Under the pieces are notes generated by a model. The model was not told the DNA's origin and ran no database searches. It worked only from the letters and a program-made list of their open reading frames with translations. Made by a program: the position numbers and the translations under genes. Shown here piece by piece: positions 4,183-42,273 of a stretch of DNA of 64,000 nucleotides. Position 1 is the stretch's first letter, and each line of letters begins with the position of its first letter. This DNA is from a virus (taxonomy: Duplodnaviria; Heunggongvirae; Uroviricota; Caudoviricetes), in the IMG/VR virus record IMGVR_UViG_3300047548_001036, positions 1 to 64,000 of that record; one strand, 5' to 3'.

Positions 4183-4199
4183 GTGCTATAATATACACA
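4183..4199 (+). promoter_or_regulatory. conserved phage promoter cassette (TGTGCTATAATATACAC)
   Basis: member of the >=15-copy GTGYTATAATACAC family, followed by ACATAGAGCAAACAACAAGGAG leader. Confidence 0.6.
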
Positions 4200-4224
4200 T
4201 AGAGCAAACAACAAGGAGTTAAAT

Positions 4225-4599
4225 ATGCAACACGATGCAGCAGTGCATACCCCGGGACCCTGGATTGTAGATCGCTATGAAGTTGACAAGATCTACATTA
4301 TTGCCGATCAAGGAAAGAGGTGGGATAACCCAGTTGTTTGCTCTCTTTTCCAGGATGTGACCCCTGCGGACTCGGTGACCCTGGGCCCCTGGTTGGAGGC
4401 CTATGAAAACGATCAAGCCAACGCCCGATTAATTGCTTCAGCACCTGACTTGCTAGCAGCATTGAAAGAAGCAGTTCGAATTATAGACATTGCATTTGAC
4501 TACAACATCAATGCATTCAGAATTGATCACAATGATGCAGTCGATGCACTGCTCGATGCCCGCTCTGTTATCGCCAAAGCAACAGGAGAAACTAAATGA
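4225..4599 (+). CDS. hypothetical protein (124 aa)
   Basis: ORF downstream of promoter cassette, AAGGAG RBS. Confidence 0.55.
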   Translation: MQHDAAVHTPGPWIVDRYEVDKIYIIADQGKRWDNPVVCSLFQDVTPADSVTLGPWLEAYENDQANARLIASAPDLLAALKEAVRIIDIAFDYNINAFRIDHNDAVDALLDARSVIAKATGETK

Positions 4600-5189
4600 G
4601 CAAGATCACACTAGACCGCGACGTGGTGGAGCAGGCACTGGAGGCTGCTGATGCGTTTTATTCACATTACAAACGAAACGTTTTTTCTGGCTGTGTTCCA
4701 AGTGAAGTGCTGTATTTTTCTGCAGCCAGAGCATCACTCCGCGCAGCACTGGAGAAACCTGTAGAGCAGGACGAATCCGCCTACCAGCGAGGCGTGACCG
4801 CAGGACGGCACGAGCTGGCCGCCGAGTACCCGCTGCCAGCCGATCTGTATGACAGCAAGGATTGGCGCTGCGGGACATACGCCGAGCGCGTCGAATGGTT
4901 GCACACGATGTATGAAGATGCAAAGAATCAGATCGCAGCACTGGAACAGCCTGTTGAGCAGGAGAGGTGCCACCTGTGTGACTGCACTGGAGACATCCAC
5001 GGCCTTGACGGCGAGTGGCGCGGGGAGTGCCCGTATTGCAGGCCGCAGCCACCTCGCCAGCCGCTGACGGATGAGCAGATCAGCGTTATCGTTGCAAACC
5101 ACCGTCTCAACGTAGGCGACTGGTCCAGGAATGGTGTAAGTGTTGCCCGCGCAGTGGAGCGTGCCCACGGGATCGGGGGTGAGGTATGA
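4596..5189 (+). CDS. hypothetical protein with C-terminal Cys cluster (CHLCDC...CPYC)
   Basis: ORF, ATGA overlap with upstream gene. Confidence 0.5.
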   Translation: MSKITLDRDVVEQALEAADAFYSHYKRNVFSGCVPSEVLYFSAARASLRAALEKPVEQDESAYQRGVTAGRHELAAEYPLPADLYDSKDWRCGTYAERVEWLHTMYEDAKNQIAALEQPVEQERCHLCDCTGDIHGLDGEWRGECPYCRPQPPRQPLTDEQISVIVANHRLNVGDWSRNGVSVARAVERAHGIGGEV

Positions 5190-5404
5190 CCCGAGACGAA
5201 ATTGACATCCTCTGGCAGCGCGCCATGCAACAGGCCGTGGAGGATGGCGAGATGTTCACCCGCTACCACTTCGCCGCCATGGTCGCCGATGCCGAGCGCG
5301 AGGCGTGCGCTCAGGTGTGTGATCGTCGCTACATGGGGGACAACACCCGTGAGGACATGGAGGCCAGGCGGTGCGCTGAAGCTATCAGAGCTAAAAAAGA
5401 TTAA
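5186..5404 (+). CDS. hypothetical protein (72 aa)
   Basis: ORF, ATGA overlap. Confidence 0.45.
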   Translation: MTRDEIDILWQRAMQQAVEDGEMFTRYHFAAMVADAEREACAQVCDRRYMGDNTREDMEARRCAEAIRAKKD

Positions 5405-5428
5405 TGAATTTTCTTACGACTGGGCTTA

Positions 5429-5451
5429 TTGTGCGTATAATTGTACGCATG
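5429..5451 (+). promoter_or_regulatory. candidate promoter with palindrome TGCGTA-n6-TACGCA around TATAAT
   Basis: seen directly. Confidence 0.35.
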
Positions 5452-5488
5452 TTTGCTATGATAGCAGCATTTATTCACTGGAGTACAG

Positions 5489-5666
5489 CGTGATCAAATA
5501 TACACCCGAGTACGAAGATCATCTGTGGTATCCTATTATTGTAACAAACTTCCTTGACGGCACTAGGCAAATTGTTGAAATGCAGGGGCGAGAAGTCAAT
5601 GCCTACAATCGTATTGTAAACCACTACTACACACCACCAAGTTACCCAAGAGGATGGAGAATATGA
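5489..5666 (+). CDS. hypothetical small protein (GTG start)
   Basis: GGAG RBS + GTG. Alternative ORF 5202-5666 overlaps 5186-5404. Confidence 0.3.
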
Positions 5667-5899
5667 AGAATAGTATATACAATGATATTGCACTAGATTG
5701 TAGTGTAAAATACCTTGCTAGCCCCGAGTGGATTTTTACAGACGCAGAACTTGAGCAGTTTGCCGATGCAATCGTTGCACGGTGTCAAAGCGTAATACGG
5801 GCAAGATTGTTCACTCAAGCTCAGACTGAACTACAGGTTGCGCATAACAATGCGCTATACTGTGCAATACATGACATTAACGATCATTTTGGAGATTAA
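5654..5899 (+). CDS. small protein, divergent member of FAELIV..HFG paralog family
   Basis: FADAIVARC ... HFGD motifs. Confidence 0.5.
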   Translation: MENMKNSIYNDIALDCSVKYLASPEWIFTDAELEQFADAIVARCQSVIRARLFTQAQTELQVAHNNALYCAIHDINDHFGD

Positions 5900-5902
5900 G
5901 TA

Positions 5903-6118
5903 ATGAAAAAAAGGTTTGCGGAACTGGCCGAGAATTGTGGTATTTACATCGATCCCCATAACATGGGGGCAACATGGCGTGAAATTGAATTCTTGTGCGA
6001 ACAAGTCGTTCGCGAATGTGCAGAGTTTGTAGACAATAATACCAGTTACGACAATTGCGGTAATGTAGAAGCAGTTACCGGCAGTGAACTCCTTGAACAC
6101 TTTGAAATTAACCCGTGA
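5903..6118 (+). CDS. FAELIV..HFG family small protein
   Basis: MKKRFAELAENCG...VVRECAEF...HFEINP. Confidence 0.55.
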   Translation: MKKRFAELAENCGIYIDPHNMGATWREIEFLCEQVVRECAEFVDNNTSYDNCGNVEAVTGSELLEHFEINP

Positions 6119-6336
6119 ACAAACAAATTCAAGACCTAGTGGATCAAGCTGGAATATGGTGCCCAACACAGGAACACAATACCTGGGTGAAAGGTGAATT
6201 CATTGCCTCGCCGGGAGAACTGTCAACATTTGCTAAATTGATAGTTACTAGCGTATTCGATAAAATTGATGAGCTAGGGTTCGAAGTTTACGAACCGGTA
6301 GTAAAAGCAGTTAAAACACACTTTGGGGTTGAATAA
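6115..6336 (+). CDS. FAELIV..HFG family small protein
   Basis: MNKQIQDLVDQAG...FAKLIV...HFGVE. Confidence 0.55.
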   Translation: MNKQIQDLVDQAGIWCPTQEHNTWVKGEFIASPGELSTFAKLIVTSVFDKIDELGFEVYEPVVKAVKTHFGVE

Positions 6337-6668
6337 TGAGAGAATCGGAAGATTGGATTGATATCGACGGCAAAGACTCAAATGGGTATCCTGCTAGTTA
6401 CGATGGCTCTGATATTCGGTCAGAGTCAAGTGACTATTCCGAATATAACCATATCCCCAAATCAAAGGAGCAAATTCAGGAAGAGCGTATACGTGAGTTC
6501 GAAAACGATATTTCACAAAAACGCAAATCTCTGGAAAGGTGCAAACAGTATTCAGGCGAGGCATTTAAAGAGTATCAGAGATATGAAGATGCCATTTCTC
6601 GATTGAATAAGGAAATTAACGATATTACTTCTTGGATAGGAGAGTTGAGGAATGAACAACCGAATTAA
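6336..6668 (+). CDS. hypothetical acidic/coiled-coil protein (110 aa)
   Basis: ORF. Confidence 0.45.
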   Translation: MRESEDWIDIDGKDSNGYPASYDGSDIRSESSDYSEYNHIPKSKEQIQEERIREFENDISQKRKSLERCKQYSGEAFKEYQRYEDAISRLNKEINDITSWIGELRNEQPN

Positions 6669-6885
6669 AGATCTTGCTGAACAGGCTAGGCGAGAATTTC
6701 TAAAACTGCCAACAGGGTATACATCTGACCAAGTCGGCATGTTTCCACAATTAATGGCAAAGTTTGCCGAACTGATAGTTCGGGAGTGTGCCGAAGTTGC
6801 CTACGAATATGACGCTCCGAAAATGAGCGGACCTGGTATGATTATTGCCGGTAGGATTGAAACACATTTCGGATTTGATGAATGA
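6652..6885 (+). CDS. FAELIV..HFG family small protein
   Basis: MNNRIKDLAEQA...KFAELIVRECAEV...HFGFDE. Confidence 0.6.
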   Translation: MNNRIKDLAEQARREFLKLPTGYTSDQVGMFPQLMAKFAELIVRECAEVAYEYDAPKMSGPGMIIAGRIETHFGFDE

Positions 6886-7118
6886 AACAAGAAATTCTAA
6901 AAGAGATTGCTAGACAAGCCGGGTTCTACTTTTACAACATGCACGATGTTGATGGACAAGACCTAGGTGAAACTGTTGAAGCAGATAGTTGGTCGGCTGT
7001 GGAGAAGTTTGCAGAACTGATTGTCAAAGAGTGTTTTAAGTCAGCAATGGTTGAATCAAAGGGGCATCTGAACCCGGTCGATTTAATTGAATCGATGAAA
7101 GCACGAGTAGGACTATAA
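6882..7118 (+). CDS. FAELIV..HFG family small protein
   Basis: EIARQAGFYF...KFAELIVKEC. Confidence 0.55.
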   Translation: MKQEILKEIARQAGFYFYNMHDVDGQDLGETVEADSWSAVEKFAELIVKECFKSAMVESKGHLNPVDLIESMKARVGL

Positions 7119-7648
7119 TGATTAAAGAAACTATTGAATATCACCTGATCTCCAAGCACTACGGGGATCGTGTGGCCAAAAGAAGTCAGGTCCCGTTGAT
7201 TAACCACATCAATGAGGGCCTTATTGTTCTAGACAGCCTTACTTCAGACATTGCTGCCAAACAGGCGTTCTGCATTCACCCTCTTGTACAAAACGATATG
7301 GATTTGCGAGAAAACTGGCCAACAGTTGCTAACATGTGTACACCCAAGGTAGTTATGTATGCAATGGAATACAGGAATATTGCTAACGCATTCTTAAGTG
7401 ATAAGATTCCTGATTTCCAAAATAGTCCCATCAAGTTAAGTCCCATCGCCGCAGTTAACGACATGTTGATTGCCGATAAGGTTCAAAACTGTAAAGATTT
7501 TTGGACATATCATCATGGCACACATCCTAGGAGCAACGAATTGGAAATTTATTTTGATAAATGGCTAGATGCCCTCGATGTTTCCGAAGAACAGTATGAA
7601 GAATTTTGTATGGTAATCGATACGCTCAGAGCGAATAACGTGTTATAA
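7118..7648 (+). CDS. hypothetical protein (176 aa)
   Basis: ORF. Confidence 0.5.
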   Translation: MIKETIEYHLISKHYGDRVAKRSQVPLINHINEGLIVLDSLTSDIAAKQAFCIHPLVQNDMDLRENWPTVANMCTPKVVMYAMEYRNIANAFLSDKIPDFQNSPIKLSPIAAVNDMLIADKVQNCKDFWTYHHGTHPRSNELEIYFDKWLDALDVSEEQYEEFCMVIDTLRANNVL

Positions 7649-7655
7649 TAACATT

Positions 7656-7880
7656 ATGAATACAGTACTTAAAAGACTACACGACGAAGCAGTGATTTAC
7701 ACTGTCGGGCTTTGCGGGCAAGAACATGCAAACGGACCACGCCCTTTCCAAGAAGTACTCGACGAAAAGTTCGCTGAGTTGATTGTCCGAGAGTGTTGCG
7801 ATGTGTTCGTTGAACTTAGGGCTCGTCCTGCTGATCTAGCTGTGAAAGATGTAAAGAACCATTTCGGAGTTGAAGAATGA
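7656..7880 (+). CDS. FAELIV..HFG family small protein
   Basis: KFAELIVRECCDV...HFGVEE. Confidence 0.6.
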   Translation: MNTVLKRLHDEAVIYTVGLCGQEHANGPRPFQEVLDEKFAELIVRECCDVFVELRARPADLAVKDVKNHFGVEE

Positions 7881-8086
7881 TCACACTTGAATTAGATAAA
7901 GAACAAAGCCGTAAAGTTACAGTTGAGCATATTGCTGATACATTGATTATCCAGAAGCAATACCTTGACGATACACAGATTGCCAAGTACAAGTTCATGC
8001 TGAATGAGTTTGCTATTCTGGTTGAGCTAGACAATATTGCAGATCGGTTTGATCGAGCATGGCCAACCGATGTTAAATGGAGCTAA
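7877..8086 (+). CDS. hypothetical protein (69 aa)
   Basis: ORF, ATGA overlap. Confidence 0.45.
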   Translation: MITLELDKEQSRKVTVEHIADTLIIQKQYLDDTQIAKYKFMLNEFAILVELDNIADRFDRAWPTDVKWS

Positions 8087-8089
8087 CTC

Positions 8090-8305
8090 ATGAGATTTGT
8101 TAAGCGATATAAGTGGGATCCTAACGAAACTAGCGAACATACCCTAGTTAGTGAGATTGTAAACGATGAGTTACCTTGCGGCGTACAGGAGCAGCTACAA
8201 CAACAAGTAAAAATCTTGACTGATATTGTAGGCTTAGTTGTTTCCCGTATGTCAGAGCAACAACTAGTCGAGCTTGCTGATTACTTTGGATGGGATAAAA
8301 AATGA
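8090..8305 (+). CDS. hypothetical protein (71 aa)
   Basis: ORF. Confidence 0.45.
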   Translation: MRFVKRYKWDPNETSEHTLVSEIVNDELPCGVQEQLQQQVKILTDIVGLVVSRMSEQQLVELADYFGWDKK

Positions 8306-8559
8306 ACGAACGAGTACAAGCCCTGTTGCCGAAACCGTGGACATTTCCTTACCCAGACAGGGAAATGTATACCAAGGAACAAATGGTGCATTTTGCCGAA
8401 CAAATTGCAAAGGAAGCAATTGACGAGATCTATACCGTTGGATATAAACCATCAAACGATATAAATGCAGACATTACGGAACTATTCATACTTCGATTGA
8501 AATATCGATTTGGCATTAAACCGACAAAGGACTATCATGACCCTAATGAAACAAATTAA
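8302..8559 (+). CDS. small protein related to FAELIV family (HFAEQIAKEA)
   Basis: MNERVQALL...HFAEQIAKEA. Confidence 0.5.
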   Translation: MNERVQALLPKPWTFPYPDREMYTKEQMVHFAEQIAKEAIDEIYTVGYKPSNDINADITELFILRLKYRFGIKPTKDYHDPNETN

Positions 8560-8944
8560 GAATAAGCAAATTGCAGCACGTAAGGAAGGTTCTGCAGACG
8601 CAAGTCTGCTAACTACTCTGCTAGGCGAAGCTGCCATGGTGGGGAAGAACGCCAATCGTGAAACTACTGATCAGGAAGTAGTTGCGGTAGTTAAGAAGTT
8701 TATCAAGAATATTGACGAGACTATCGCGGCACTGACTACTCGCAACCAAGATGCCGGCAGTTTTCTGGCAGAACGAGCTGTTCTAGAAAAGTTTCTGCCC
8801 TTGCAACTTACCGAACTCGCGCTCGAGAACATTGCTAAACAGCATAAGTCTATGCCGGAGTTTATGAAGTTCCTCAAGGAAAATCATGCAGGTCAGTACG
8901 ACGGCAAGCTGGCATCCACTGTGGCTAAGAAGATTTATAACTAA
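8537..8944 (+). CDS. GatB/YqeY-domain protein
   Basis: resemblance to the GatB_YqeY domain at residues EVVAVVKKFIKN...AERAVLEKFLPLQLTELALENIA. AAGGA RBS before ATG 8537; ORF opens at 8510. Confidence 0.45.
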   Translation: MTLMKQIKNKQIAARKEGSADASLLTTLLGEAAMVGKNANRETTDQEVVAVVKKFIKNIDETIAALTTRNQDAGSFLAERAVLEKFLPLQLTELALENIAKQHKSMPEFMKFLKENHAGQYDGKLASTVAKKIYN

Positions 8945-8954
8945 GGATTAAATC

Positions 8955-9398
8955 ATGGATCTGTTTGTTCAATACAATGAACGTTGCACTCATAGTTCGC
9001 GCGAGCCGGTTGAGTACGGGGATTGGCGCGAAGAGTATGAATTCCGAGTTACAGGGGTTAGTCTTACCAGTCAAGATCGATGGTCTGAGGAAAAGCTAGG
9101 GTGCTTAGTTGATGTTAAAGCAGGCGAGCCAGTATTTGTTCTGTATATGACTTACGACACAGGCGACAGCTTTGGATATGCTACAGGCAAGGGCGAAGTT
9201 ATCTGGGTCTTTAAAGATCCCGCGCTGGCCATGGCAGCTAAGGCAAAGTGGGAAGCTGGAAACGCCAAGCGCGATCCAGATTACTCTATCGAGTTCGAAG
9301 TCGATGGGGGCAAGACTATAAAGCAGCACAACCCGGCAGCTGGATATTTTGAGAATATAGGCTATGTCGAAGTTCAAACATTCTTGTTGAATCCATGA
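8955..9398 (+). CDS. hypothetical protein (147 aa)
   Basis: ORF. Confidence 0.5.
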   Translation: MDLFVQYNERCTHSSREPVEYGDWREEYEFRVTGVSLTSQDRWSEEKLGCLVDVKAGEPVFVLYMTYDTGDSFGYATGKGEVIWVFKDPALAMAAKAKWEAGNAKRDPDYSIEFEVDGGKTIKQHNPAAGYFENIGYVEVQTFLLNP

Positions 9399-9631
9399 AT
9401 CAGATTATTGAAAAACTTTCCAAACAGTGTTATGTAACAGGGCCACTAACCCGAGATGGGTGGCCTGAGTACTGCACTTTTGATGAGCAACGGTTTGCTG
9501 ATCTAATTATTCATGAGTGTATCAATGCATTGGCTGCTGAAATAGTGTATAATGAACACTATACAGAACGCAACAAAATTATCGGAGACATGATGATAGT
9601 TGTAAAGAAACACTTCGGAGATGCACAATGA
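9395..9631 (+). CDS. FAELIV..HFG family small protein
   Basis: RFADLIIHECINA...HFGDAQ. Confidence 0.55.
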   Translation: MNQIIEKLSKQCYVTGPLTRDGWPEYCTFDEQRFADLIIHECINALAAEIVYNEHYTERNKIIGDMMIVVKKHFGDAQ

Positions 9632-9807
9632 AAGACTTGAATGAGACTAACCTGCGATACATTAGTACAATGTCGTCTGAAGATCAACACCAGTGGTATC
9701 TGCGTATTAAAGAGTCTTTGCCAACACTGCGTCGAGTGTTTTCTGCCGAAGATATCAAAGAAATAGAAACTGAAATTGAAAATTATGAGCTCCGTTGGAT
9801 GGAATAA
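9628..9807 (+). CDS. hypothetical small protein (59 aa)
   Basis: ORF below 60-aa cutoff, overlaps stops with neighbours. Confidence 0.35.
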   Translation: MKDLNETNLRYISTMSSEDQHQWYLRIKESLPTLRRVFSAEDIKEIETEIENYELRWME

Positions 9808-9809
9808 AA

Positions 9810-10061
9810 ATGAACGAACGAATCCGAGAGCTAGCTGCACAAGCACATGAATATGCTCGTAACTACGTAGCGGATTGTAAGACTTATGGACACTACATGG
9901 ACTCAGACGAACTCGAACAGCAGTTTGAACGAAAGTTTGCCGAACTGCTGATCCGTGAATGTGCCAGTATTGCCAGGGAAGCTGACTCCGTTAATGTGTT
10001 CGGCGCCGGCTTTGGTTATGAGATTGCAGACAACATCGAACAGCAACTAGGAATCTTCTGA
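9810..10061 (+). CDS. FAELIV..HFG family small protein
   Basis: MNERIRELAAQA...KFAELLIRECASIA. Confidence 0.6.
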   Translation: MNERIRELAAQAHEYARNYVADCKTYGHYMDSDELEQQFERKFAELLIRECASIAREADSVNVFGAGFGYEIADNIEQQLGIF

Positions 10062-10318
10062 TGAATATCCGCAAGCGTTTGAAAAACAAACTCAAGTTGT
10101 TGCCTAGGTATAGTGATCACCAAGCAACCGAATCGCGTAGGCCTCGAAAGAACGCAACTTACTTTAGTGATTGGTGTTGTTCCCAATGTTATTGGGATTG
10201 GGGACGTGGATGGGATGGACACTATAATTATCGGCATAACTGTGCAAAAAGCAATTACGACGGGTTACTGAAGAAATACTGGAAACCAACTGACAACTAC
10301 AAGGATAATAATGAGTAA
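10061..10318 (+). CDS. hypothetical basic, W/C-rich protein (85 aa)
   Basis: ORF. Confidence 0.4.
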   Translation: MNIRKRLKNKLKLLPRYSDHQATESRRPRKNATYFSDWCCSQCYWDWGRGWDGHYNYRHNCAKSNYDGLLKKYWKPTDNYKDNNE

Positions 10319-10496
10319 TTTATGGTTTAATATACGGTTCGGCACACGACACTGGCAGTGGGGTCCGGATGGCATGAACTTTAGTCAGAACCCGGCTCAG
10401 GTTGAATGGAAACACTCTGAACCGGAAACCTGGAGGTGGTTCGCGATTTATACCGCGTTTGGTAAAAATTTGAACCCCACATATGAACTGTGGTAA
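10311..10496 (+). CDS. hypothetical Trp-rich small protein
   Basis: ORF. Confidence 0.35.
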   Translation: MSNLWFNIRFGTRHWQWGPDGMNFSQNPAQVEWKHSEPETWRWFAIYTAFGKNLNPTYELW

Positions 10497-10526
10497 TTTT
10501 AAACCCTATACTTCAGAAACACCACT

Positions 10527-10718
10527 ATGAGTTACATGACATACACAATCAACGAACAGATTAAATTTCTCGAAAGTGAAATCACACGAGTTAAAGAACT
10601 GATAAACGAATCCAGTTTTGATTGCACCACTAGTGTTTACGTTATTGTTAAGCAGTACCGTGATGCTATGAAGAAACATCTGCAAATTCTTCGAATGAAC
10701 CTAGAGGACATCGAATGA
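10527..10718 (+). CDS. hypothetical protein (63 aa)
   Basis: ORF. Confidence 0.4.
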   Translation: MSYMTYTINEQIKFLESEITRVKELINESSFDCTTSVYVIVKQYRDAMKKHLQILRMNLEDIE

Positions 10719-10810
10719 AACGCTTTTGGATGACCTGTACCGAGTGTGCACTAACCGAAGTGATGCAACCATGTGAAGCCTGTCCAAACAGACGGGCACA
10801 AGGACTATGA
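10715..10810 (+). CDS. tiny CxxC..CxxC zinc-ribbon-like peptide (31 aa)
   Basis: MKRFWMTCTECALTEVMQPCEACP, ATGA-coupled. Confidence 0.3.
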   Translation: MKRFWMTCTECALTEVMQPCEACPNRRAQGL

Positions 10811-11091
10811 ACTCTACTTTTGAACGGCTTGCCAAACAAGCCGGTGCACATTGGAATCACGGAGACTTCAATATGGGTGCATCTGTAGAGTTCCAAGAAA
10901 GTGATTTGGAAAAGTTCGCTATGTTGATTGTTCAGCAATGTATACACTACCTCGACGGTGAGATTAACCGGTTGTGCGAGTATCAGAAGTCCTTGCCAGA
11001 CCGAGATGAAAATAAGCGAGACAATGTTGATTTGGTCATTGAAAAATGTATGGACAACATTGCCGGGTTAAAAGAACATTTCGGAATTTAA
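10807..11091 (+). CDS. FAELIV..HFG family small protein
   Basis: MNSTFERLAKQAGAHW...KFAMLIVQQC...EHFGI. Confidence 0.55.
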   Translation: MNSTFERLAKQAGAHWNHGDFNMGASVEFQESDLEKFAMLIVQQCIHYLDGEINRLCEYQKSLPDRDENKRDNVDLVIEKCMDNIAGLKEHFGI

Positions 11092-11101
11092 AAGGTAACT
11101 T

Positions 11102-11626
11102 ATGTGGCACGCACCGCTCCCGTTAAAACTTGTTCCAACGACTAGTTCCGAATCATTTAAACAAATGCCCAGGGGTCACACTGGTCTTCCCCTGCGTCCG
11201 CATCCAGGCGCGTTTGCGGTAAAAAGAAAGCATCATATCCATGAGGGTATAGATTTATATGCACCCGTAGGTACACCCGTGTTTGCTGTCGAGACTGGAG
11301 AAGTCAAATCCGTTAGGCAGTTTACTGGTCCGGAGCTGGGTCATGATTGGTGGCTGCCAACCTGGGCTGTCTGGGTTGAAGGTGCCAGCGGGGTAGTCGT
11401 GTATGGTGAGCTGGAGCCCAGGGTGCATGTCGGCGACCACATTCGTGCCGGGGATTGTGTGGGCGCTATTGTACCGGTGTTAAAAACTAATAAAGGTAGG
11501 CCAACTAGCATGTTGCATTTAGAACTCAGGACACCTAATGCTATGCAGGACATCGACTGGCATGCAGATTCCCGGATGCCTGATGGGTTACTCGATCCTA
11601 CACAATTTTTGTTGGATATTTGTTGA
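11102..11626 (+). CDS. M23 family (LytM-like) metallopeptidase
   Basis: HxGIDLYAPVGTPVFAVETGEV motif typical of peptidase M23. Confidence 0.6.
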   Translation: MWHAPLPLKLVPTTSSESFKQMPRGHTGLPLRPHPGAFAVKRKHHIHEGIDLYAPVGTPVFAVETGEVKSVRQFTGPELGHDWWLPTWAVWVEGASGVVVYGELEPRVHVGDHIRAGDCVGAIVPVLKTNKGRPTSMLHLELRTPNAMQDIDWHADSRMPDGLLDPTQFLLDIC

Positions 11627-11643
11627 AATCTGAGGAGTTAAAA

Positions 11644-11907
11644 ATGACATATGCATATAGTGAGGCTGTAGCCTTTGAGAGCTCGGGAGATTTGCCCTAT
11701 AACCAAGAAACAAAAGAGTTTACGCTCACACACGAAACTTTAGAGCAGTATGCAAGGATCATTGCTTATAAGGTAGCACATAATATTAGTAATGGGTATA
11801 AAATGGATCCCACAATTGATCCGCTAACTTACATCGACTGTCGTAACTTTTCTAACGATAACGGATACCCGGATTATGAAATAATGCCAGTTGACGAATC
11901 AGATTGA
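11644..11907 (+). CDS. hypothetical protein
   Basis: GAGGAG RBS before ATG 11644; ORF opens at 11620. Confidence 0.45.
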   Translation: MTYAYSEAVAFESSGDLPYNQETKEFTLTHETLEQYARIIAYKVAHNISNGYKMDPTIDPLTYIDCRNFSNDNGYPDYEIMPVDESD

Positions 11908-11920
11908 TTATCACTTTCAA

Positions 11921-12172
11921 ATGAACCAACAAATACTTGACATTGTTAGGCAAAATGAACGAATCCGTAATCTCTATGAGATCGGACCAGTTCAGCAGGC
12001 AGAGGTAGAGCAGTTTGCAGAAGACTTGCTGATCATTGCTCGAAATATCGTGTTAAACGGACTTTACGATGAAGAAGAATTTAACCCTGCAGATCCTTGG
12101 CATCAGGGTCACAACCAGGCATTGATCAATGTTGCTGAAGGCATAAAGAACTACTTTGAGTTGCGTGTATAA
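11921..12172 (+). CDS. small protein, divergent FAELIV-like (QFAEDLLIIARN...NYFEL)
   Basis: motif similarity; ORF opens at 11891. Confidence 0.45.
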   Translation: MNQQILDIVRQNERIRNLYEIGPVQQAEVEQFAEDLLIIARNIVLNGLYDEEEFNPADPWHQGHNQALINVAEGIKNYFELRV

Positions 12173-12180
12173 TATACACA
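12164..12180 (+). promoter_or_regulatory. conserved phage promoter cassette
   Basis: CGTGTATAATATACACATAGACAACAAAC. Confidence 0.6.
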
Positions 12181-12202
12181 TAGACAACAAACTGGAGCAG
12201 AT

Positions 12203-12571
12203 ATGAAGCGTGGTGATCAAGTTAGCGTGTGCTACGATGGCAAGTGGGGTCGTCGAGTAGAAGGCACTGTCCTTGCTACTGACCGTGGAGGACGTATCTT
12301 GGTTCGATTTGTTCCTTGGGCCAGTGACCTGGAAAATCCAGTGGATCATTGGTTCCATGTTCGTCGTCGCAGTGCTCGTTATGGTGGGCCGCGCAAGTAT
12401 TTCGCAGGCTTTGTTCCGGTGCAGGTCAGCCTCATGCGCAATCTGTTTGGCACGTATGGAGATTGGTATGAAGTCAAGTCACTTTCGTACAATGTTGATA
12501 ACACCAAAACAGGTCGTTGGTTTCGTAAGCAACTGTACAAGATGAACACCGAAAATAAAACATCCACTTGA
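12203..12571 (+). CDS. hypothetical protein (122 aa)
   Basis: ORF after promoter cassette. Confidence 0.5.
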   Translation: MKRGDQVSVCYDGKWGRRVEGTVLATDRGGRILVRFVPWASDLENPVDHWFHVRRRSARYGGPRKYFAGFVPVQVSLMRNLFGTYGDWYEVKSLSYNVDNTKTGRWFRKQLYKMNTENKTST

Positions 12572-12575
12572 GCCC

Positions 12576-12592
12576 GCGTTATAATACACACA
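12576..12592 (+). promoter_or_regulatory. conserved phage promoter cassette
   Basis: GCGTTATAATACACACATAGACAGCAAAAAC. Confidence 0.6.
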
Positions 12593-12623
12593 TAGACAGC
12601 AAAAACCGTTAAAGGAACACACA

Positions 12624-12917
12624 ATGCGTAAAGAGAACTTGGAATATAATGTCAAGAATGCGATCTCTGCTCTGCAAGATCTGATGGATCAAGGCTACAA
12701 GGTCGAGGATGATACGGTGCTGGAGTGGAAGGACAAGTATTACGACCTAGTGTTCACTATTCGAGATCACCTGTATAATGCCGAGGCCCTGTACAAAGAT
12801 ATGCAAGACAACGGTCTGACTCTAGGCACTGCCGAGGCCGAAGGCTATCTGCGTGGTGCTAGGTACTTGTATAATTGTGTCAAAGATGACATTGCAGGAG
12901 ACGATGGCGAAATTTGA
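12624..12917 (+). CDS. hypothetical protein (97 aa)
   Basis: ORF after promoter cassette, AAAGGAAC RBS. Confidence 0.5.
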   Translation: MRKENLEYNVKNAISALQDLMDQGYKVEDDTVLEWKDKYYDLVFTIRDHLYNAEALYKDMQDNGLTLGTAEAEGYLRGARYLYNCVKDDIAGDDGEI

Positions 12918-12932
12918 GTGTATAATACACAT
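12916..12932 (+). promoter_or_regulatory. conserved phage promoter cassette
   Basis: GAGTGTATAATACACAT. Confidence 0.55.
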
Positions 12933-12959
12933 ATGGACACCAACACAGAGGAACGACAA

Positions 12960-13700
12960 ATGAACATTGAACAAACTATTAACAAACTGGCTGTAGGCTG
13001 CCTGCCTAAGTGGCCGCAGATGCTAGTTTCAGGAAAGCCAGTTACTGTTGAACAGGCCAAGGACATTATCCTGCGCACTGATCGGTTCCTTACTGATGCA
13101 GACGATTTTGCCGGAGGTAATGCTCGTGAGTTTAATCGCGAGTATCGTAAGATGGCCGGATTGACTCGCATTCAGAAAACCAAGCAGTACCCTGAAGGCC
13201 ATAGTTATGTTACTGCTGATTGGGATCTGCAAGACAAAGTCAAAGACGCACTTGGCGTAATTGAAACTGAGTATGTGCGTAATGATTGGGCTAGCTGTAG
13301 TTTCATCGGTGGTCCGCACGGCTGGTGTCATCCTGACGGCACCATTTACTTTGACGACAATGTAGGCAAGTGGCCTAGCATTGAAGACATTTACAGAGAG
13401 TGGGGGGACATCGCTCAAGAATTTCCCTATCTTGACCTGCATGTCACGCTGATGAGCGGTGAGAGCTGCGATGATTACAGCCGCCCAGTGATCAATATTC
13501 GCGTAGTCAATGGCGAGGCTACCTTGGCCGAGCCTGATGACACAGTGCATAGTTATCAGAAGCAGACCTCGGAAGATAAGGTGGAACAATTTGTTGAATC
13601 CATGCGTAATTTTGGTACCAGTCGAGAAATTGGCCTTCCGGCAAAGTGGTATGAAGAATTCGCTGAGCGGGTTCGCACTGCGGTGGCAACCGTGCTATAA
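12960..13700 (+). CDS. hypothetical protein (~246 aa)
   Basis: first ATG with RBS (GAGGAAC) downstream of the promoter box. The ORF-list start 12918 lies inside the -10 box. Confidence 0.5.
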   Translation: MNIEQTINKLAVGCLPKWPQMLVSGKPVTVEQAKDIILRTDRFLTDADDFAGGNAREFNREYRKMAGLTRIQKTKQYPEGHSYVTADWDLQDKVKDALGVIETEYVRNDWASCSFIGGPHGWCHPDGTIYFDDNVGKWPSIEDIYREWGDIAQEFPYLDLHVTLMSGESCDDYSRPVINIRVVNGEATLAEPDDTVHSYQKQTSEDKVEQFVESMRNFGTSREIGLPAKWYEEFAERVRTAVATVL

Positions 13701-13709
13701 TACACATAG
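13690..13709 (+). promoter_or_regulatory. conserved phage promoter cassette
   Basis: CCGTGCTATAATACACATAG. Confidence 0.6.
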
Positions 13710-13728
13710 ACAATAAAGGACTAAGACG

Positions 13729-13953
13729 ATGGCAAAGGCAAAATCATACTTTTGGACTAAAGCAGCAGGGGTCAATGCCGACATTGAACGCCATCGTGAA
13801 CGGGAACAAGAGCTGCAAGCACGCATAGATGAACTGGAGGCCAAACCAGTCAAGACCGAGCGTGATCTGATTGCGATCCGCACTTGGCGGAACTTCATGT
13901 GCCAGCTGCAAGCTAGCAAGGCTGAAGCTGTGGGCCGTCTTGGCCGTAAGTGA
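13729..13953 (+). CDS. hypothetical coiled-coil protein (74 aa)
   Basis: ORF. Confidence 0.45.
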   Translation: MAKAKSYFWTKAAGVNADIERHREREQELQARIDELEAKPVKTERDLIAIRTWRNFMCQLQASKAEAVGRLGRK

Positions 13954-13962
13954 CGCAAATCT

Positions 13963-13977
13963 GTGCTATAATTGACT
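13963..13977 (+). promoter_or_regulatory. conserved phage promoter cassette (variant)
   Basis: TGTGCTATAATTGAC. Confidence 0.5.
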
Positions 13978-14006
13978 TACCGCAACAAACAACACACGAT
14001 CCAAAC

Positions 14007-14147
14007 ATGTTCTACGTTAACCTATTTTTCAGCGCGTACAGTTCATATCTGTTTGCAACTTCAGAAACTGGCCTGGACCGTACGATTAACGGTTTGGCGA
14101 TTTTTCTGAATTTGGCAGCAGTGTGGTTACACCTTGCTAACCAATAA
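14007..14147 (+). CDS. small hydrophobic protein (FFSAYSSYLFATSET...LNLAAVW), paralog of 17372-17518
   Basis: ORF plus paralogy. Confidence 0.45.
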   Translation: MFYVNLFFSAYSSYLFATSETGLDRTINGLAIFLNLAAVWLHLANQ

Positions 14148-14162
14148 CAAAGGAACACTACC

Positions 14163-14610: not shown

Positions 14611-14611
14611 T

Positions 14612-32534: not shown

Positions 32535-32703
32535 TTTTAATCTCCCTATAATAATACTTACGCACTAGTAGTACAAGGCATGATGTGCACGAGTACTACC
32601 TGTACTTCAGCATATGTAATTGTGACAGCCAATTTCAATAATTTTACGCTACTATTTGATAGATGTCTATGCATCCGACTTTTATTTTTGCTAACTAATC
32701 CAG

Positions 32704-32737
32704 TTGACTTTACAGCTAAAGTGCGCTATAATACAGC
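32704..32737 (+). promoter_or_regulatory. sigma70 consensus promoter TTGACT-17-TATAAT + conserved cassette
   Basis: TTGACT 32704-09, TATAAT 32727-32. Confidence 0.65.
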
Positions 32738-32739
32738 TA

Positions 32740-33056
32740 TGACAGAACACTGCTATGTTGCATATTTTGACTGCTTGGGTTTCGAGTGCATTTTGGATGC
32801 AACCGCACATGACCGAAAACGGACTTGGAATGCCTTACAGGACAAATCTAGTGAACGGTTTCCTTTAACTGAGTTACTCTTGCGAGCTAGGCTTAATACA
32901 CAACGAAACCCCGAAGTCTGGAGCTTTTGGAGTGAGATTGACCTAGAAACACTTAACCGTTATTCGATCGAAATGCCGCAGCAATTTGCAGATCTCATTC
33001 GTGAAAAAGGTACTCCTCTTTACCAATCAGGTAAACAATCGCAAGTTATCAAATAA
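32740..33056 (+). CDS. hypothetical protein (105 aa)
   Basis: ATG 8 nt after -10 box (near-leaderless). The ORF-list start 32580 spans the promoter. Confidence 0.45.
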
Positions 33057-33532: not shown

Positions 33533-33781
33533 ATGAACATGAACGAAAATATTCAAGAGCTAGCCGAGCAAGCAGGGTTTTATGTTGCGATGTTCGATCC
33601 AGGTAACCAAGAAAACGCAAAGCTAGAACGCTTTGCTGAATTGATAATTAAACGATCCGCTGATCTGATCGCCATGCATGCAGGTCAACTGAGACAGTTT
33701 AACTTTGAACTAAACGCCAAGACTGCAGATACCGCAGCGGGGTTATTGCTAGAGCACTTTGGATTTAAGGAAACACAATGA
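33533..33781 (+). CDS. FAELIV..HFG family small protein (outlying member)
   Basis: MNENIQELAEQAGFY...RFAELIIKR...HFGFKE. Confidence 0.55.
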   Translation: MNMNENIQELAEQAGFYVAMFDPGNQENAKLERFAELIIKRSADLIAMHAGQLRQFNFELNAKTADTAAGLLLEHFGFKETQ

Positions 33782-34175: not shown

Positions 34176-34195
34176 CTGTGTTATAATAAACTAAC
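34176..34195 (+). promoter_or_regulatory. conserved phage promoter cassette
   Basis: CTGTGTTATAATAAACTAAC. Confidence 0.6.
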
Positions 34196-34210
34196 AAACA
34201 AGGAACTAAT

Positions 34211-34765
34211 ATGATTACTCTCAAAGATTGGCTGGAAGCAATTAATTATCGTATCACTGGCGGCGATGAATATGGCTGGAACTGCTTTGGTAACAATGCC
34301 AGGATGCTAGATAGCTGGGACAACGACCAAGACGGTGTTCATTCCAGTATTGTTTTTGATACAGTTACACAAGAAGTTTACCTAGCTGAAGTAAATGATT
34401 ATGCACGCAATCGTGCATATCGGTTGGTTAATCCTGTCTACAACGATGCACGTATTAGCGAAGCCGCAGCCCGCAATGTCGACGATGATGTTGCGTGGGA
34501 AGAAGTTAACTTTGTAGATCTCGAAACTGACGAAGACTTTCTAGAAAAATGTCAGGCTATCATGAACTACGAAGATTACGATGTGCGTGTGGCCGTTCCT
34601 TTGGAAATGGATCAAGAAAATCTGTTTCGTCTTATGAAACTGGCACACGAGCGAGACATTACACTTAATCAACTAGTTGAGCAGGCTATTCTCAACGCGC
34701 TTGATGAGTTTGAACAGAATCCTGTAGAATTTGCAGCTCGACTAAAGGAATATGCGCATGGCTAA
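34211..34765 (+). CDS. hypothetical acidic protein (184 aa)
   Basis: ORF after promoter. Confidence 0.55.
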   Translation: MITLKDWLEAINYRITGGDEYGWNCFGNNARMLDSWDNDQDGVHSSIVFDTVTQEVYLAEVNDYARNRAYRLVNPVYNDARISEAAARNVDDDVAWEEVNFVDLETDEDFLEKCQAIMNYEDYDVRVAVPLEMDQENLFRLMKLAHERDITLNQLVEQAILNALDEFEQNPVEFAARLKEYAHG

Positions 34766-37649: not shown

Positions 37650-37880
37650 GTGATCATTTATACGTATCCTAATCCTTTTCCTCTTGGCGGTCACGTAGTA
37701 TCATTTCTTTCTTTTCGGTTAATTGACAACATCAAGGAATGGTGTTATAATACATACGGAGAACCGGGAATACCTACTAATACTACTTCTAGATGGTACG
37801 ACAGCATAAAATATGGAGAAATTTTATTTAGAGATGAAAGAGATGTAACATTATTCTTACTGAGATGGTCAAGCGAATGA
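37650..37880 (+). CDS. RWS family small protein
   Basis: IKEWCYNTYGEPG ... RDVTLFLLRWSSE. Confidence 0.6.
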   Translation: MIIYTYPNPFPLGGHVVSFLSFRLIDNIKEWCYNTYGEPGIPTNTTSRWYDSIKYGEILFRDERDVTLFLLRWSSE

Positions 37881-40360: not shown

Positions 40361-40532
40361 AATATGCATACAGTGCCCTATTACTTGGGCCGACCAGCTT
40401 GCGTGGATTCATCAACGGTGTAAAAATTACCGTGATGTTACCAACTGGCGAAGTTGGTGTTTAGGCGTTCATCCTATTTACTACGAGCTCACAGAAAAAG
40501 ATGCCACTCTATTTCATCTTAGGTGGAGCTAA
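40353..40532 (+). CDS. RWS family small protein (59 aa, below ORF-track cutoff)
   Basis: my translation: MVRICIQCPITWADQLAWIHQRCKNYRDV...EKDATLFHLRWS. Confidence 0.45.
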   Translation: MVRICIQCPITWADQLAWIHQRCKNYRDVTNWRSWCLGVHPIYYELTEKDATLFHLRWS

Positions 40533-40747
40533 TGGACTACAAAGCTGTCATCGCACTTAAAACTAATAATGTTTGGGACACAGAAGCTCGTGTTAATGAG
40601 ATATGGGAGATTAAAGAATGGCTAGACGAATTAGTAAAATGGCAAAGAGGGATGTATTCTGTGCAATATTTAACAACTAGCCAACAATTACTGGTTTGGT
40701 TCAGAGAAGAACGACATGCAACGATGTGCTCCTTGAGGTGGTCATGA
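40532..40747 (+). CDS. RWS family small protein
   Basis: IKEWLDELVKWQRG ... RHATMCSLRWS; TAATG coupling. Confidence 0.55.
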   Translation: MDYKAVIALKTNNVWDTEARVNEIWEIKEWLDELVKWQRGMYSVQYLTTSQQLLVWFREERHATMCSLRWS

Positions 40748-41121
40748 GTTTAAGGATGCTATGGAAAATGAATAAAAAATCAAGCGACTGGTGGGTGCTT
40801 GACGTTATAAGTAACCGTAAGCAGTTGGTTAATATCTGGCATACAGTCTGGTGGAAATTGATGCCTGGAACGGAAATTAAAGTGCCGTGGCCACATGGAT
40901 GGACTGAACCCGTAGTGTCAGCAGACGGTAGTATTGTTCAAACAGAATCCAGTGACCCAAACGACCATTATAGGCCGTGGCTTGTTAAAAATGTAGGCCG
41001 GCAAGGATGGGACTGGCAGTGGGATCTACGCGACTACGACATCATTGATAATACATTAACTATTAAGTTTCGGCAAGGAAAATCAAAGTGGGCAACGGTT
41101 GCAGCAATTAAATGGAGTTAA
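40744..41121 (+). CDS. RWS family protein (125 aa)
   Basis: …KSKWATVAAIKWS; ATGA overlap. Confidence 0.5.
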   Translation: MSLRMLWKMNKKSSDWWVLDVISNRKQLVNIWHTVWWKLMPGTEIKVPWPHGWTEPVVSADGSIVQTESSDPNDHYRPWLVKNVGRQGWDWQWDLRDYDIIDNTLTIKFRQGKSKWATVAAIKWS

Positions 41122-41122
41122 C

Positions 41123-41545
41123 ATGAGAGCACAAGATTACATATACCTATTTGAAAAAAACTTAAACAAGTTCTGTTCGCAGTATCGAGCCCATGTAAAA
41201 GCAGGACAACCGATGCGTAGAGTTGATCCTATATGGGCCGATCCTATCTCTAATAATTATCGTGATTTTCATGTGACTACATACGAAGTTCCTACCGTGG
41301 AGATCGTTATTAGTGAAAATGATTTATCTGCGCTAATGAACGACCTTGCTGAAATGGATACGTCGGAGTATAACGAATTTGTAAGATACAATAAAATTTT
41401 AGGCCGAGGGTTTATGAACGATCTACAAACATACAAATATCGCCAGTCTAAGGAAGAACACATAAGAAATCAAAACCCTGGAGTAAAAAAAGCTTGGGAA
41501 AACTATCAGCTTATGCTAAAATTAGCAGGGAATAATACACAATGA
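41123..41545 (+). CDS. hypothetical protein (140 aa), not a family member
   Basis: GGAG RBS; ORF opens at 41099. Confidence 0.5.
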   Translation: MRAQDYIYLFEKNLNKFCSQYRAHVKAGQPMRRVDPIWADPISNNYRDFHVTTYEVPTVEIVISENDLSALMNDLAEMDTSEYNEFVRYNKILGRGFMNDLQTYKYRQSKEEHIRNQNPGVKKAWENYQLMLKLAGNNTQ

Positions 41546-41664
41546 ATAAAATTTCTTATACTATTAGGTGGCAACAAAACTACAATACCTGGGATCAGCT
41601 GGAGATCCCAATTACAGATTTTACAGAAGCTCGAGCAGTATTAGACAGGATCATGAAACTATGA
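41542..41664 (+). CDS. tiny ORF (40 aa) MNKISYTIRWQQ..., possible family remnant
   Basis: ATGA-coupled at both ends. Confidence 0.25.
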   Translation: MNKISYTIRWQQNYNTWDQLEIPITDFTEARAVLDRIMKL

Positions 41665-41894
41665 CCGTAGCACATATGAAACTAAAAACCTGTGAAGTTG
41701 GCTTGTTTAGACTTCCGGGTATAGTTATAGAACATGACAAAGATGTAGGAGACTCGGAAATGAAGCGGCGGCTTGACGAAGCAGAGGTGTGGAGTGAAGA
41801 AACTAACTGTGGTAAGCGTATGAATGACTACTTGTGGTCTTTCCGCAACGAAAAGCAGAGAGACATGTTTATACTTAGATGGAGTGAACAATAA
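41661..41894 (+). CDS. RWS family small protein
   Basis: …KQRDMFILRWSEQ; ORF opens at 41568. Confidence 0.5.
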   Translation: MTVAHMKLKTCEVGLFRLPGIVIEHDKDVGDSEMKRRLDEAEVWSEETNCGKRMNDYLWSFRNEKQRDMFILRWSEQ

Positions 41895-42003
41895 TGGGGC
41901 AGGGTACACCACCTTGAATCGACGAAAATTTAATTCCGGAATTGTTGATGCACAAAATAAATTTCAAATAATTGACAATAAGATAGTTGAATACCGCAGG
42001 ATC

Positions 42004-42246
42004 ATGGTGCATCAGTTTACGGTCAAAGAAGAAGACACTGAACTGTTTGCATCAACTGAGCTCTGGAAATGGCAACAGAGCGAACAAGGCAAATGGGTAA
42101 TAGAACATGCTGTAGAACAACCGGAATGGCATATCATTGACAATCCTACCTGGTTTGTCACCAAGGTTGCAGTGATTGCCAGGTTGTCGGGGAAGGACAT
42201 AACATTTTGGGAGCTTAAATGGGGGAACACTATTAGACAACTCTAG
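42004..42246 (+). CDS. RWS family small protein (start uncertain; ORF opens at 41824)
   Basis: LWKWQQSEQGKW ... KDITFWELKWGNT. Confidence 0.4.
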   Translation: MVHQFTVKEEDTELFASTELWKWQQSEQGKWVIEHAVEQPEWHIIDNPTWFVTKVAVIARLSGKDITFWELKWGNTIRQL

Positions 42247-42252
42247 TATTAT

Positions 42253-42273
42253 GTTGTATAATATATGTACACA
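42253..42273 (+). promoter_or_regulatory. conserved phage promoter cassette
   Basis: TGTTGTATAATATATGTACAC. Confidence 0.55.

Follow-up and report, generated by a model that had tools for sequence, protein, structure and literature searches.

The 64,000-nucleotide (nt) stretch analysed here (IMG/VR record IMGVR_UViG_3300047548_001036, positions 1 to 64,000; hereafter the window) belongs to an uncultured large phage. It carries rIIA (1992-4160) and rIIB (19193-20290), tail-fibre and baseplate-like genes at 49-53 and 59-61 kb, and long runs of small + strand genes between which a short cassette recurs: a TATAAT hexamer, usually in extended -10 form, followed by a conserved start region, an A/C-rich leader, a ribosome-binding site (RBS) and an ATG. 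We count 18 sites of this class, all on the + strand between 4.2 and 42.3 kb, most of them without a recognizable -35 element. We consider it likely that these repeats are compact sigma70 extended -10 promoter-leader modules, internal to arrays of ORFans and stripped down from a fuller cassette, which also provide homology for recombination.

Among cultured phages, megablast of the region from 12 to 20 kb returned no match, rIIA reaches at most ~43% identity to any of them, and the closest rIIB sequences are those of the jumbo phages Xoo-sp13, PA5oct and relatives (47-52% identity). These comparisons do not support a T4-type identity of the phage, whose nearest cultured relatives, judged by rIIB, appear to be jumbo phages. 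A metagenome scan with rIIB recovered 112 relatives, mostly from lake metagenomes and on contigs up to 360 kb; a Logan assembly (L003) that carries the window sequence at 100% identity adds nothing to the comparison. The 101 small + strand open reading frames (ORFs) of the region match only 12 Pfam families, Pfam and PHROG scans of the genes behind the cassettes returned almost nothing, and an Rfam scan of the whole window found no family. With an ORF content typical of phage early accessory genes, the ORFan-rich region beside rIIA and rIIB looks early. The rIIA gene itself (2000-4000) has a G+C content of 54.5%, against ~43% elsewhere in the window, and contains long shadow ORFs in other frames (e.g., 1968-3857 on the - strand, 629 amino acids (aa)) that lead to spurious tblastn matches to relatives.

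Inventory and anatomy of the cassette

Site searches for the inventory were confined to the window. The box GTGYTATAATACAC, allowing up to two mismatches, was observed 15 times on the two strands against 1.00 expected; none of 100 dinucleotide-preserving shuffles yielded 15 matches, and the + strand holds 14 of the 15 real ones. A preliminary description of this DNA had proposed at least 15 conserved cassette copies and listed 16, all of which carry a perfect TATAAT (first T at 4187, 12168, 12580, 12921, 13696, 13967, 15454, 16475, 16850, 17062, 17329, 24479, 25835, 32727, 34182, and 42257). We add two more, at 37746 and 19069, so that the hexamer is perfect at 17 of the 18 sites and reads TACAAT at the last. 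The weight-matrix scan that had been suggested, with a matrix spanning -6 to +24 around TATAAT and trained on 17 window sites, gave 21 matches at a score of at least 14, compared to 0-2 in 20 dinucleotide shuffles. It returned no match past 42.3 kb and a single weak one on the - strand, and lowering the threshold added almost no sites; the class is sharply bounded, though with a matrix trained on these same sites the scan mainly shows that nothing else in the window looks alike.

Aligned on TATAAT, the sites hold information above background only from -6 to about +24 of the hexamer's first base, and information is zero from -7 to -45. Counted from the predicted start, conservation runs only from -18 to about +13, with nothing conserved upstream of about -18. 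The consensus reads (C)TGTG(Y)-TATAAT-A(C)AC(W)(Y)-A, in which TGTGn corresponds to the full TRTGn form of the extended -10; TG stands in register (-15/-14) at 12 of 18 sites overall, most of which read TGTGn. An A follows the hexamer directly (TATAATA) at 16 of the 17 TATAAT sites, the exception being TATAATT at 13967, and the site at 19069 has this A as well. The A that we predict as +1 lies 7 nt past the hexamer at 16 of 17 sites, with a pyrimidine before it, which is the geometry expected of sigma70 start sites. Since the span of conservation from -18 to +13 matches the positions contacted by RNA polymerase, the anatomy fits a sigma70 promoter, and by sequence the sites qualify as promoters of the extended -10 type.

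At 15 sites the predicted start is followed by a leader of 17-32 nt in which AGGA or GGAG stands 6-9 nt before the ATG. The leaders come in two subtypes (...CACATAGAC... and ...ACTTACAGCAAC...) and are essentially unstructured and U-poor, with a composition of 50% A, 23% C, 16% G, and 10.5% T and a folding energy of -0.033 kcal/nt, compared to -0.132 for random window segments (p=7.6e-7). The extended -10, leader, and RBS of the preliminary description were thus recovered, while the leader that it quoted (ACAGCAACAC) is exact in two copies only; likewise, its placement of the copies directly 5' of a + strand gene holds for these 15 sites and is ambiguous at 32727, 37746, and 19069.

Twelve cassettes, none with a good -35, lie among the ~51 small + strand ORFs of the array between rIIA and rIIB (4161-19192). 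Cassette 1 (4181-4227) consists of CTGTGC-TATAAT (4187), a predicted start at A4199, a 26-nt leader, and an ATG at 4225, and matches a -35 at only one of six positions; a GGAGC-tcat-GCTCC hairpin stands just 5' of it, past the rIIA stop. Cassette 7 (15448-15496; TTGTGC-TATAAT at 15454, ATG 15494) is 94% identical to cassette 1 over 32 bp, at a distance of 11 kb. In cassettes 2 (12162-12205; GTG-TATAAT at 12168, TG out of register, no -35, ATG 12203) and 5 (13690-13731; GTGC-TATAAT at 13696, ATG 13729), the TAA stop of the upstream ORF falls within TATAAT. Cassette 3 (12574-12626; CGT-TATAAT at 12580, ATG 12624) has neither TGn nor -35 and a 32-nt leader, and is kept in L205, a relative with 93% nucleotide identity. 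Cassette 4 (12915-12962) begins with the stop codon of the upstream gene (TGA-GTG-TATAAT, hexamer at 12921), continues with GAGGA and an ATG at 12960, and precedes the gene for a 246-aa protein with 557 homologues; its junction, TGAGTGTATAAT, is found again in L205 and in a further relative, L207. Cassettes 6 (13961-14009; CTGTGC-TATAAT at 13967, ATG 14007) and 11 (17323-17374; CTGTGC-TATAAT at 17329, ATG 17372) precede paralogous hydrophobic ORFs of 46 and 48 aa, and cassette 6 forms the left breakpoint of a 405-bp insertion/deletion (indel) relative to L205. Between them lie cassettes 8 (16469-16507; CTGTGC-TATAAT at 16475, 18-nt leader, ATG 16505), 9 (16844-16888; TGGTGT-TATAAT at 16850, leader ACAGCAACACAC, ATG 16886), and 10 (17056-17102; TGATGT-TATAAT at 17062, ATG 17100). 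The array ends with a probable variant (19063-19093; CTGTGC-TACAAT at 19069, followed by ACAGACAGACAC) that has a weak -35 (TAGACC) and lies within a small ORF, 124 nt 5' of rIIB (ATG 19193).

Past rIIB, two cassettes carry a -35: 24456-24515 (TTGACT at 24456, 17 bp, TATAAT at 24479, ATG 24513) and 32704-32741 (TTGACT at 32704, 17 bp, TATAAT at 32727, ATG 32739). At the latter, an in-frame ATG (32739; 105-aa product) has its A exactly at the predicted start, and the mRNA may therefore lack a leader; or else the promoter may be internal to ORF 32580-33056, whose start an external gene call puts at 32583. Two copies lack a -35, at 25829-25873 (TAA stop-CTGTGT-TATAAT at 25835, ATG 25871) and 34176-34213 (CTGTGT-TATAAT at 34182, 17-nt leader, ATG 34211). 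A site of full consensus (37723-37770; TTGACA-17-TGT-TATAAT-ACATAC, hexamer at 37746) lies within predicted ORF 37650-37880, 107 nt from the next gene (start 37865), and the last copy ahead of the terminator at 43236 spans 42234-42294 (TAGACA at 42234, 17 bp, TATAAT at 42257, ATG 42292). For comparison, the promoter predicted for rIIA (1930-1994) is of what appears to be the ancestral full type, with TTGACA (1930), a 17-bp spacer, TACAAT (1953), an A/C-rich leader, and an ATG at 1992.

The missing -35 element

Calling a -35 at five or more of six matches to TTGACA with a spacing of 16-18 bp, we found one at 4 of 18 sites (TTGACT 24456, TTGACT 32704, TTGACA 37723, and TAGACA 42234). The preliminary description had seen both TTGACT boxes at 17 bp and had noted that most copies lack a -35, and our counts agree. 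At the 14 remaining sites the best match averages 2.8/6, compared to 2.5/6 for random positions. In most copies the stop codon of the upstream gene lies 3-13 nt before TATAAT, and at 12168 and 13696 it lies within it (TA-TAA-T). The -35 is missing at 14 of 18 sites because the upstream gene ends flush with the cassette, so that unrelated coding sequence occupies the -35 position. Two such junctions recur: a TA-TAA-T stop within the hexamer (12168-12173 and 13696-13701 in the window; 588, 1348, and 11023 in L207) and TGA-GTG-TATAAT (12921 in the window; 711 in L205; 885 and 1651 in L207).

Between 4.2 and 43.3 kb there are ~104 + strand gene junctions, 76 of which have a gap below 25 nt and no promoter, while 15 intergenic gaps, 28-68 nt long, contain little besides the cassette; every site lies on the coding strand. 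Good intrinsic terminators on the + strand were found at 22397 and 43236 only. Since none lies between cassettes, the cassettes would be internal promoters of long co-directional arrays. No cassette has a terminator-like site, and a short hairpin occurs at 4187 only. Upstream hairpins are not enriched (mean 45-nt folding energy -5.6, vs. -6.7 for random 45-mers), and by the same crude folding measure they are not enriched in relatives either.

Of the three elements -35, TGn, and -10, a sigma70 promoter must have two (Hinton 2010, PMC2988021). When the 18 cassette sites were combined with four canonical -35/-10 promoters of the window (rIIA 1930-1958, 20390, 21517, and 26522), TGn stood in register at 11 of 14 promoters without a -35 and at 1 of 8 with one (Fisher p=0.006). 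The contig L207 gave the same pattern independently, with TGn at 12 of 17 promoters without a -35 and at 0 of 5 with one (p=0.0096). This compensation between TGn and -35 suggests that the sequences have been selected as promoters and is hard to explain otherwise.

The preliminary description took the lack of a -35 to be typical of T4-type early promoters. This was mistaken, since T4 early promoters combine UP, -35, TGn, and -10 elements (Hinton 2010, PMC2988021). At our 18 sites, the upstream region is 59% A+T against a background of 56%, indicating no UP-like enrichment. An excellent -10, often with TGn and without a -35, is instead the pattern of T4 middle promoters, in which a MotA box (TGCTT core) is centred at -30, 12+/-1 bp from the -10 (PMC2988021). 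Were the cassettes activator-dependent promoters of this middle type, the binding site of a phage activator would replace the -35 and they would be silent with unmodified host polymerase; the window does encode a protein with a LuxR- and sigma-region-4-like helix-turn-helix (HTH) domain (31761-32534). However, no motif is conserved from -19 to -57, where information is ~0 and the sequence is unrelated coding sequence of different genes. TGCTT occurs in the 30 nt upstream of 0/18 sites, and a Pfam scan of the 101 window ORFs found no AsiA, MotA, or sigma family match. Dependence on an activator thus seems highly improbable. The HTH protein itself (257 aa, - strand) has a C-terminal LuxR/GerE domain (E=1.6e-15) and a weak match to sigma70 region 4; its gene is divergent from the promoter at 32704-32732, and it could be a transcription regulator of the phage.

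A 61-nt consensus cassette gave only chance-level matches of 24-37 nt in cultured phages (T5-like Vibrio phages and Eneladusvirus), so no cultured phage carries this cassette as such. A scan of IMG/VR with the exact pattern TGYTATAATACACWTACAGCAA had no matches. With a looser pattern (TGNTATAATAHAYACATA, which includes no -35) and subsequent scoring of the loci by the matrix, we found strand-biased clusters of like -10, start region, and leader, for example in L062 (14 sites in 11 kb), L115 (12 sites), L041, L037, and L073. Loci that share proteins with the window (L001, L051, L009, L109, L005, L110, L012, L082, L061, L011, and L028) carry the element GGTTGAC(A/C)-N17-TG(C/T)-TATAAT-AyACACATAGACAGCAA...AGGAG...ATG. 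The share of sites with a -35 is 23/24 in the IMG/VR loci that have proteins in common with the window, 27/27 in rIIB-derived loci, and 185/217 over all fetched loci, compared to 4/18 in the window (Fisher p=7.5e-7 for the window vs. protein-sharing loci). The distance from stop codon to TATAAT has a median of ~24 nt in rIIB-derived loci and is mostly 19-55 nt in protein-sharing ones. Given the full -35 form in these relatives, the cassette of the window appears to be a truncated form of a clade-wide promoter module. In the rIIB-derived loci L124-L203, 197 unique promoter sites also share a spacer (TTGACA-aTAAAT...TTTGG-TATAAT), which suggests an extra recognition element or descent of the entire 29-bp promoter from one ancestor.

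The stripped form is a trait of a lineage: that a -35-less array is unique to this phage is ruled out by L205, which retains four homologous -35-less copies, and by L207, which has ~22 cassette copies in 12.8 kb, likewise set flush against stop codons. Only two genes are common to L207 and the window, including that for the 246-aa protein (62% identical). With few genes but many cassettes shared, the cassette seems to be conserved while its cargo turns over. Conversely, L206 (Logan SRR22256703) shares at least eight different window genes, including that for the 246-aa protein at 61% identity, and its intergenic regions contain no cassette and no obvious sigma70 promoter.

The comparison with relatives also bears on whether the polymerase involved would be that of the host. 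A phage sigma factor or modified polymerase might read an extended -10-like box, as T4 gp55 reads TATAAATA; recognition limited to the -10 region fits sigma factors with region 2 only, and the conserved A of TATAATA and the ACAC that follows exceed the minimal sigma70 consensus. Yet the box is a perfect sigma70 consensus that includes TRTGn, a like box is paired with TTGACA at exactly 17 bp in relatives and in four window copies, and TGn/-35 compensation is a property of sigma70. PA5oct is reported to rely on host RNA polymerase, with 32 promoters of the TTGAC/TATAATA type at start sites defined by RNA-seq (Lood et al. 2020, PMC7318152). Moreover, a distinct late-like motif (ATAAATATA) precedes the structural genes. 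Recognition by a phage-specific factor is in our view very unlikely.

The late-like motif ATAAATATA occurs five times in the window against 1.4 expected, a count reached by 2/100 shuffles. All copies (48934, 48996, 50910, and 55042/55047) fall within 48.9-55.1 kb, 10-40 nt 5' of structural-looking genes, and a single exact TATAAATA lies at 43267, between the terminator at 43236 and a gene at 43290. Similar to the core of T4 late promoters, the motif is a candidate late promoter here. Between the divergent genes 55012(-) and 55071(+), a perfect 26-bp palindrome (cttttgataaatatatttatcaaaag, 55036-55061) contains it in both orientations, and an imperfect 33-bp palindrome between convergent genes (53724-53756) is likely a bidirectional terminator.

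Proposed recombination and the split rII gene pair

Duplications of cassette-bearing segments, one of the claims of the preliminary description, are present in the window. Positions 13960-14151 and 17322-17522 (cassette plus the 46/48-aa hydrophobic ORF) are 76% identical over 201 bp, 14147-14232 and 16489-16574 (leader plus the N-terminus of the 16505 gene) are 87% identical over 86 bp, and the two duplicated parts join within the leader, at ACAAAGGAACAC. L205 is collinear with the window over 12211-13992 (1782 bp, 93%, no gaps) and resumes at window position 14397, lacking a 405-bp segment (13993-14396, + strand) that is a mosaic of copies of 17322-17522 and 16489-16574. The segment comprises three ORFs: one for a small membrane protein (14007-14147), one that is a truncated 16505 gene (14163-14279), and a further small one (14294-14398); the first two make up the mosaic of two other cassette modules. 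Its left breakpoint lies in a cassette leader, between the 5' part of the leader and the RBS, and its right breakpoint at AAAGGAG before gene 14410. In the T4-like phage RB49, crossovers that formed mini-circles at promoter-early stem-loops (PeSLs) were mapped between the -10 box and the Shine-Dalgarno sequence (SD) or ATG (PMC2839356).

In 71/71 related loci in which both genes are visible, the gap between rIIA and rIIB measures 12-714 nt (median 26); in the window it is 15,032 nt. The earlier suggestion that the repeats act as substrates of recombination thus finds comparative support in the L205 indel, its mosaic insert, and the split rIIA/rIIB pair.

The coincidence of cassettes with an indel and duplications could also be expected if the repeats were DNA-level elements, either operators of a dimeric regulator (GTG-N7/8-CAC) or scars of recombination or mobile elements, with their likeness to promoters incidental; GTGTATAATACAC is indeed a perfect 6+1+6 palindrome. 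The sole inverted-repeat symmetry, however, is the short GTG...CAC, which is not conserved: its spacing differs among copies (N7, N8), and relatives mostly have TTTGC or CCTTGC in place of GTG. Each copy is oriented, and on the coding strand an RBS and ATG follow at a short, fixed distance. No transposase family was found among the Pfam matches of the + strand ORFs, and target duplications were not looked for. A DNA-level origin therefore seems extremely unlikely, and the palindromic operator is rejected, given the varying spacing of the half-sites and the lack of the left half in relatives.

Two other sets of repeats were found in the window. A family of 70-90-aa proteins with 30-46% mutual identity is present in multiple copies (6652-6885, 7656-7880, 8302-8559, 9795-10061, 14585-14857, 15232-15441, 33533-33781, and others), most without a preceding cassette; tandem homologues occur in L206, and the family is also present in L002, L012, and L082. 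Farther along the window, 54836-54999 and 56340-56503 form a 168-bp DNA repeat (76% identical), and the N-terminus of a 419-aa protein (53753-55012, - strand) is 55% identical to residues 928-1011 of a 1071-aa glycosyltransferase-like protein (56079-59294, - strand).

A proposed promoter module and its counterparts in other phages

The reading that we favour, of compact promoter-leader modules, implies the following course of events. Host RNA polymerase holoenzyme with its primary sigma factor would read TRTGn-TATAAT through sigma regions 2.4 and 3.0, with no contact by region 4, and transcription would begin at the conserved A, 7 nt past the hexamer. The short, open, A/C-rich leader would then give ribosomes immediate access and each gene a 5'-proximal RBS. 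Along the terminator-free arrays, the modules would probably re-initiate or boost transcription and so produce nested transcripts. The cassette would be derived from the full TTGAC(A/C)-N17-TGnTATAAT-AyACACATAG...AGGAG-ATG of related freshwater large phages, with L207 sharing the stripped form. Finally, its 30-40 bp of near-identical sequence would provide homology for inserting, duplicating, and deleting gene modules, a length that would suffice for phage recombination systems, as argued for PeSLs (PMC2839356). Gain of modules by this route may have contributed to the 15-kb array that now lies between rIIA and rIIB.

Several observations weigh against this reading. At 12168, 12580, and 12921, the -35 and a canonically placed TG are both missing, and these sites could have little or no activity; the sites at 19069 and 37746 are internal to predicted ORFs. 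In L205, one of the homologous sites reads TCTAAT, possibly a sequencing error on a contig of 0.7x coverage, and it is this same low-coverage contig that supplies the single clean indel backing recombination at a cassette. The right end of that indel is a bare RBS with no cassette, and cassette-by-cassette exchange does not fully explain it. The similarity of leaders among the matches in relatives is partly circular, the matrix having been trained on the window, and when the 197 TTGACN-17-TATAAT sites of rIIB loci are taken as an unbiased set, conservation is limited to the start region (~CATAG) and A-richness.

The last of these points, weak leader conservation past the start region in an unbiased promoter set of the wider clade, would be expected if the leaders had no function of their own and resembled each other through recent duplication or gene conversion, with selection on the -10 region only. 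The closeness of neighbouring copies (16850/17062/17329) and the 94% identity of 4187 and 15454 over 32 bp can be read in the same way. L207 speaks against such an account: although it shares only two genes, it repeats the start region and A/C-rich leader of the window (ACACACATAGCAAC...AAGGAG) at ~22 sites. The leaders are, moreover, significantly unstructured, a property open to selection. We rate functionless leaders as improbable.

A bolder version of the promoter-module reading concerns the sub-lineage formed by the window, L205, and L207. Promoters of the TGn/-10 type are immune to anti-sigma factors directed at region 4, such as AsiA (PMC2988021), and one may speculate that the cassettes stay active after a -35-directed shut-off, although the scan of the window turned up no such factor. 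The sub-lineage, of freshwater large phages, would then have switched its accessory early arrays to a ~45-nt, -35-independent module that fires despite an AsiA-like block. It would at the same time have acquired a system for capturing, duplicating, and shuffling self-expressing ORFans by recombination over short homology from the -10 to the SD, and this system would have produced the 15-kb array between rIIA and rIIB. The AsiA-like factor may in that case sit elsewhere in the genome, where it would shut off the -35 promoters of both host and phage. The common 5' leader might further offer a handle for post-transcriptional control. We regard this scenario as doubtful.

Within known transcription systems, the sites would introduce no new principle; they appear to put the known extended -10 type to a new, modular use. 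Like other extended -10 sigma70 promoters, including T4 PrIIB2 (PMC2988021), they have TGnTATAAT, a start (here predicted) 7 nt downstream, and, presumably, no need for a -35, which by sequence is lacking at 14/18. Unlike the usual extended -10 promoter, they form a repeated, conserved module with a fixed start region and leader, packed against a stop codon and arrayed in up to 10 copies in 5.2 kb. They thereby offer a minimal phage module for promotion and translation start, ~45 nt from -18 and sometimes with a stop codon within the -10, for which related phages provide two natural states, with and without -35. T4 early promoters are alike in their strong -10 with TGn, their early-looking small genes, and the presumed use of host polymerase, but have UP and -35 elements where our sites have no UP and a -35 at 4/18; T4 middle promoters differ by the MotA box, found at 0/18 sites here.

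Closer in sequence are the promoters of PA5oct, which share the TATAATA box and differ in their TTGAC -35 (4/18 here), and above all the full cassettes of uncultured relatives (L001, L051, L062, L082, L110, L115, L153, and others), which share the AyACACATAG start, the A-rich leader, and AGGAG. The promoters of these relatives have TTGAC(A/C) at 17 bp in 85-100% of cases, often with a spacer of TTGACAaTAAAT...TTTGG, whereas the window and L207 appear to have lost everything upstream of -18. The motif could serve as an annotation marker for accessory early-gene arrays in uncultured freshwater jumbo-type phages, as the matrix built from the window found ~22 sites in a contig with unrelated cargo (L207).

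In organization, the nearest counterparts are the PeSL cassettes of the T4-like phages RB49/phi1, PST/T4, and nt-1/KVP40 (PMC2839356; PMC4122927). Both are short, repeated regulatory cassettes between small ORFans in hyperplastic regions, ending in an SD and start codon, and both are tied to indels that distinguish close relatives, the crossovers falling in the interval from the -10 to the SD/ATG, as at the L205/window breakpoint (a single case). PeSLs combine a stem-loop terminator, a -35/-10 promoter, and an AT-rich upstream part; the cassettes here have no stem-loop, terminator, or AT-rich tract, and combine -10, SD, and ATG in 15 copies while the -35 is absent in 14/18. Without terminators, these modules would not be transcriptionally insulated as PeSLs are. 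PeSL carriers are T4-like; the nearest cultured relatives of the phage studied here, judged by rIIB, appear to be jumbo phages. Our data suggest that the shuffling of regulatory cassettes, established for T4-like phages, extends to a different phage group with a cassette that has neither terminator nor, in most copies, a -35, and they offer an explanation for the 15-kb insertion that splits a gene pair adjacent in 71/71 relatives.

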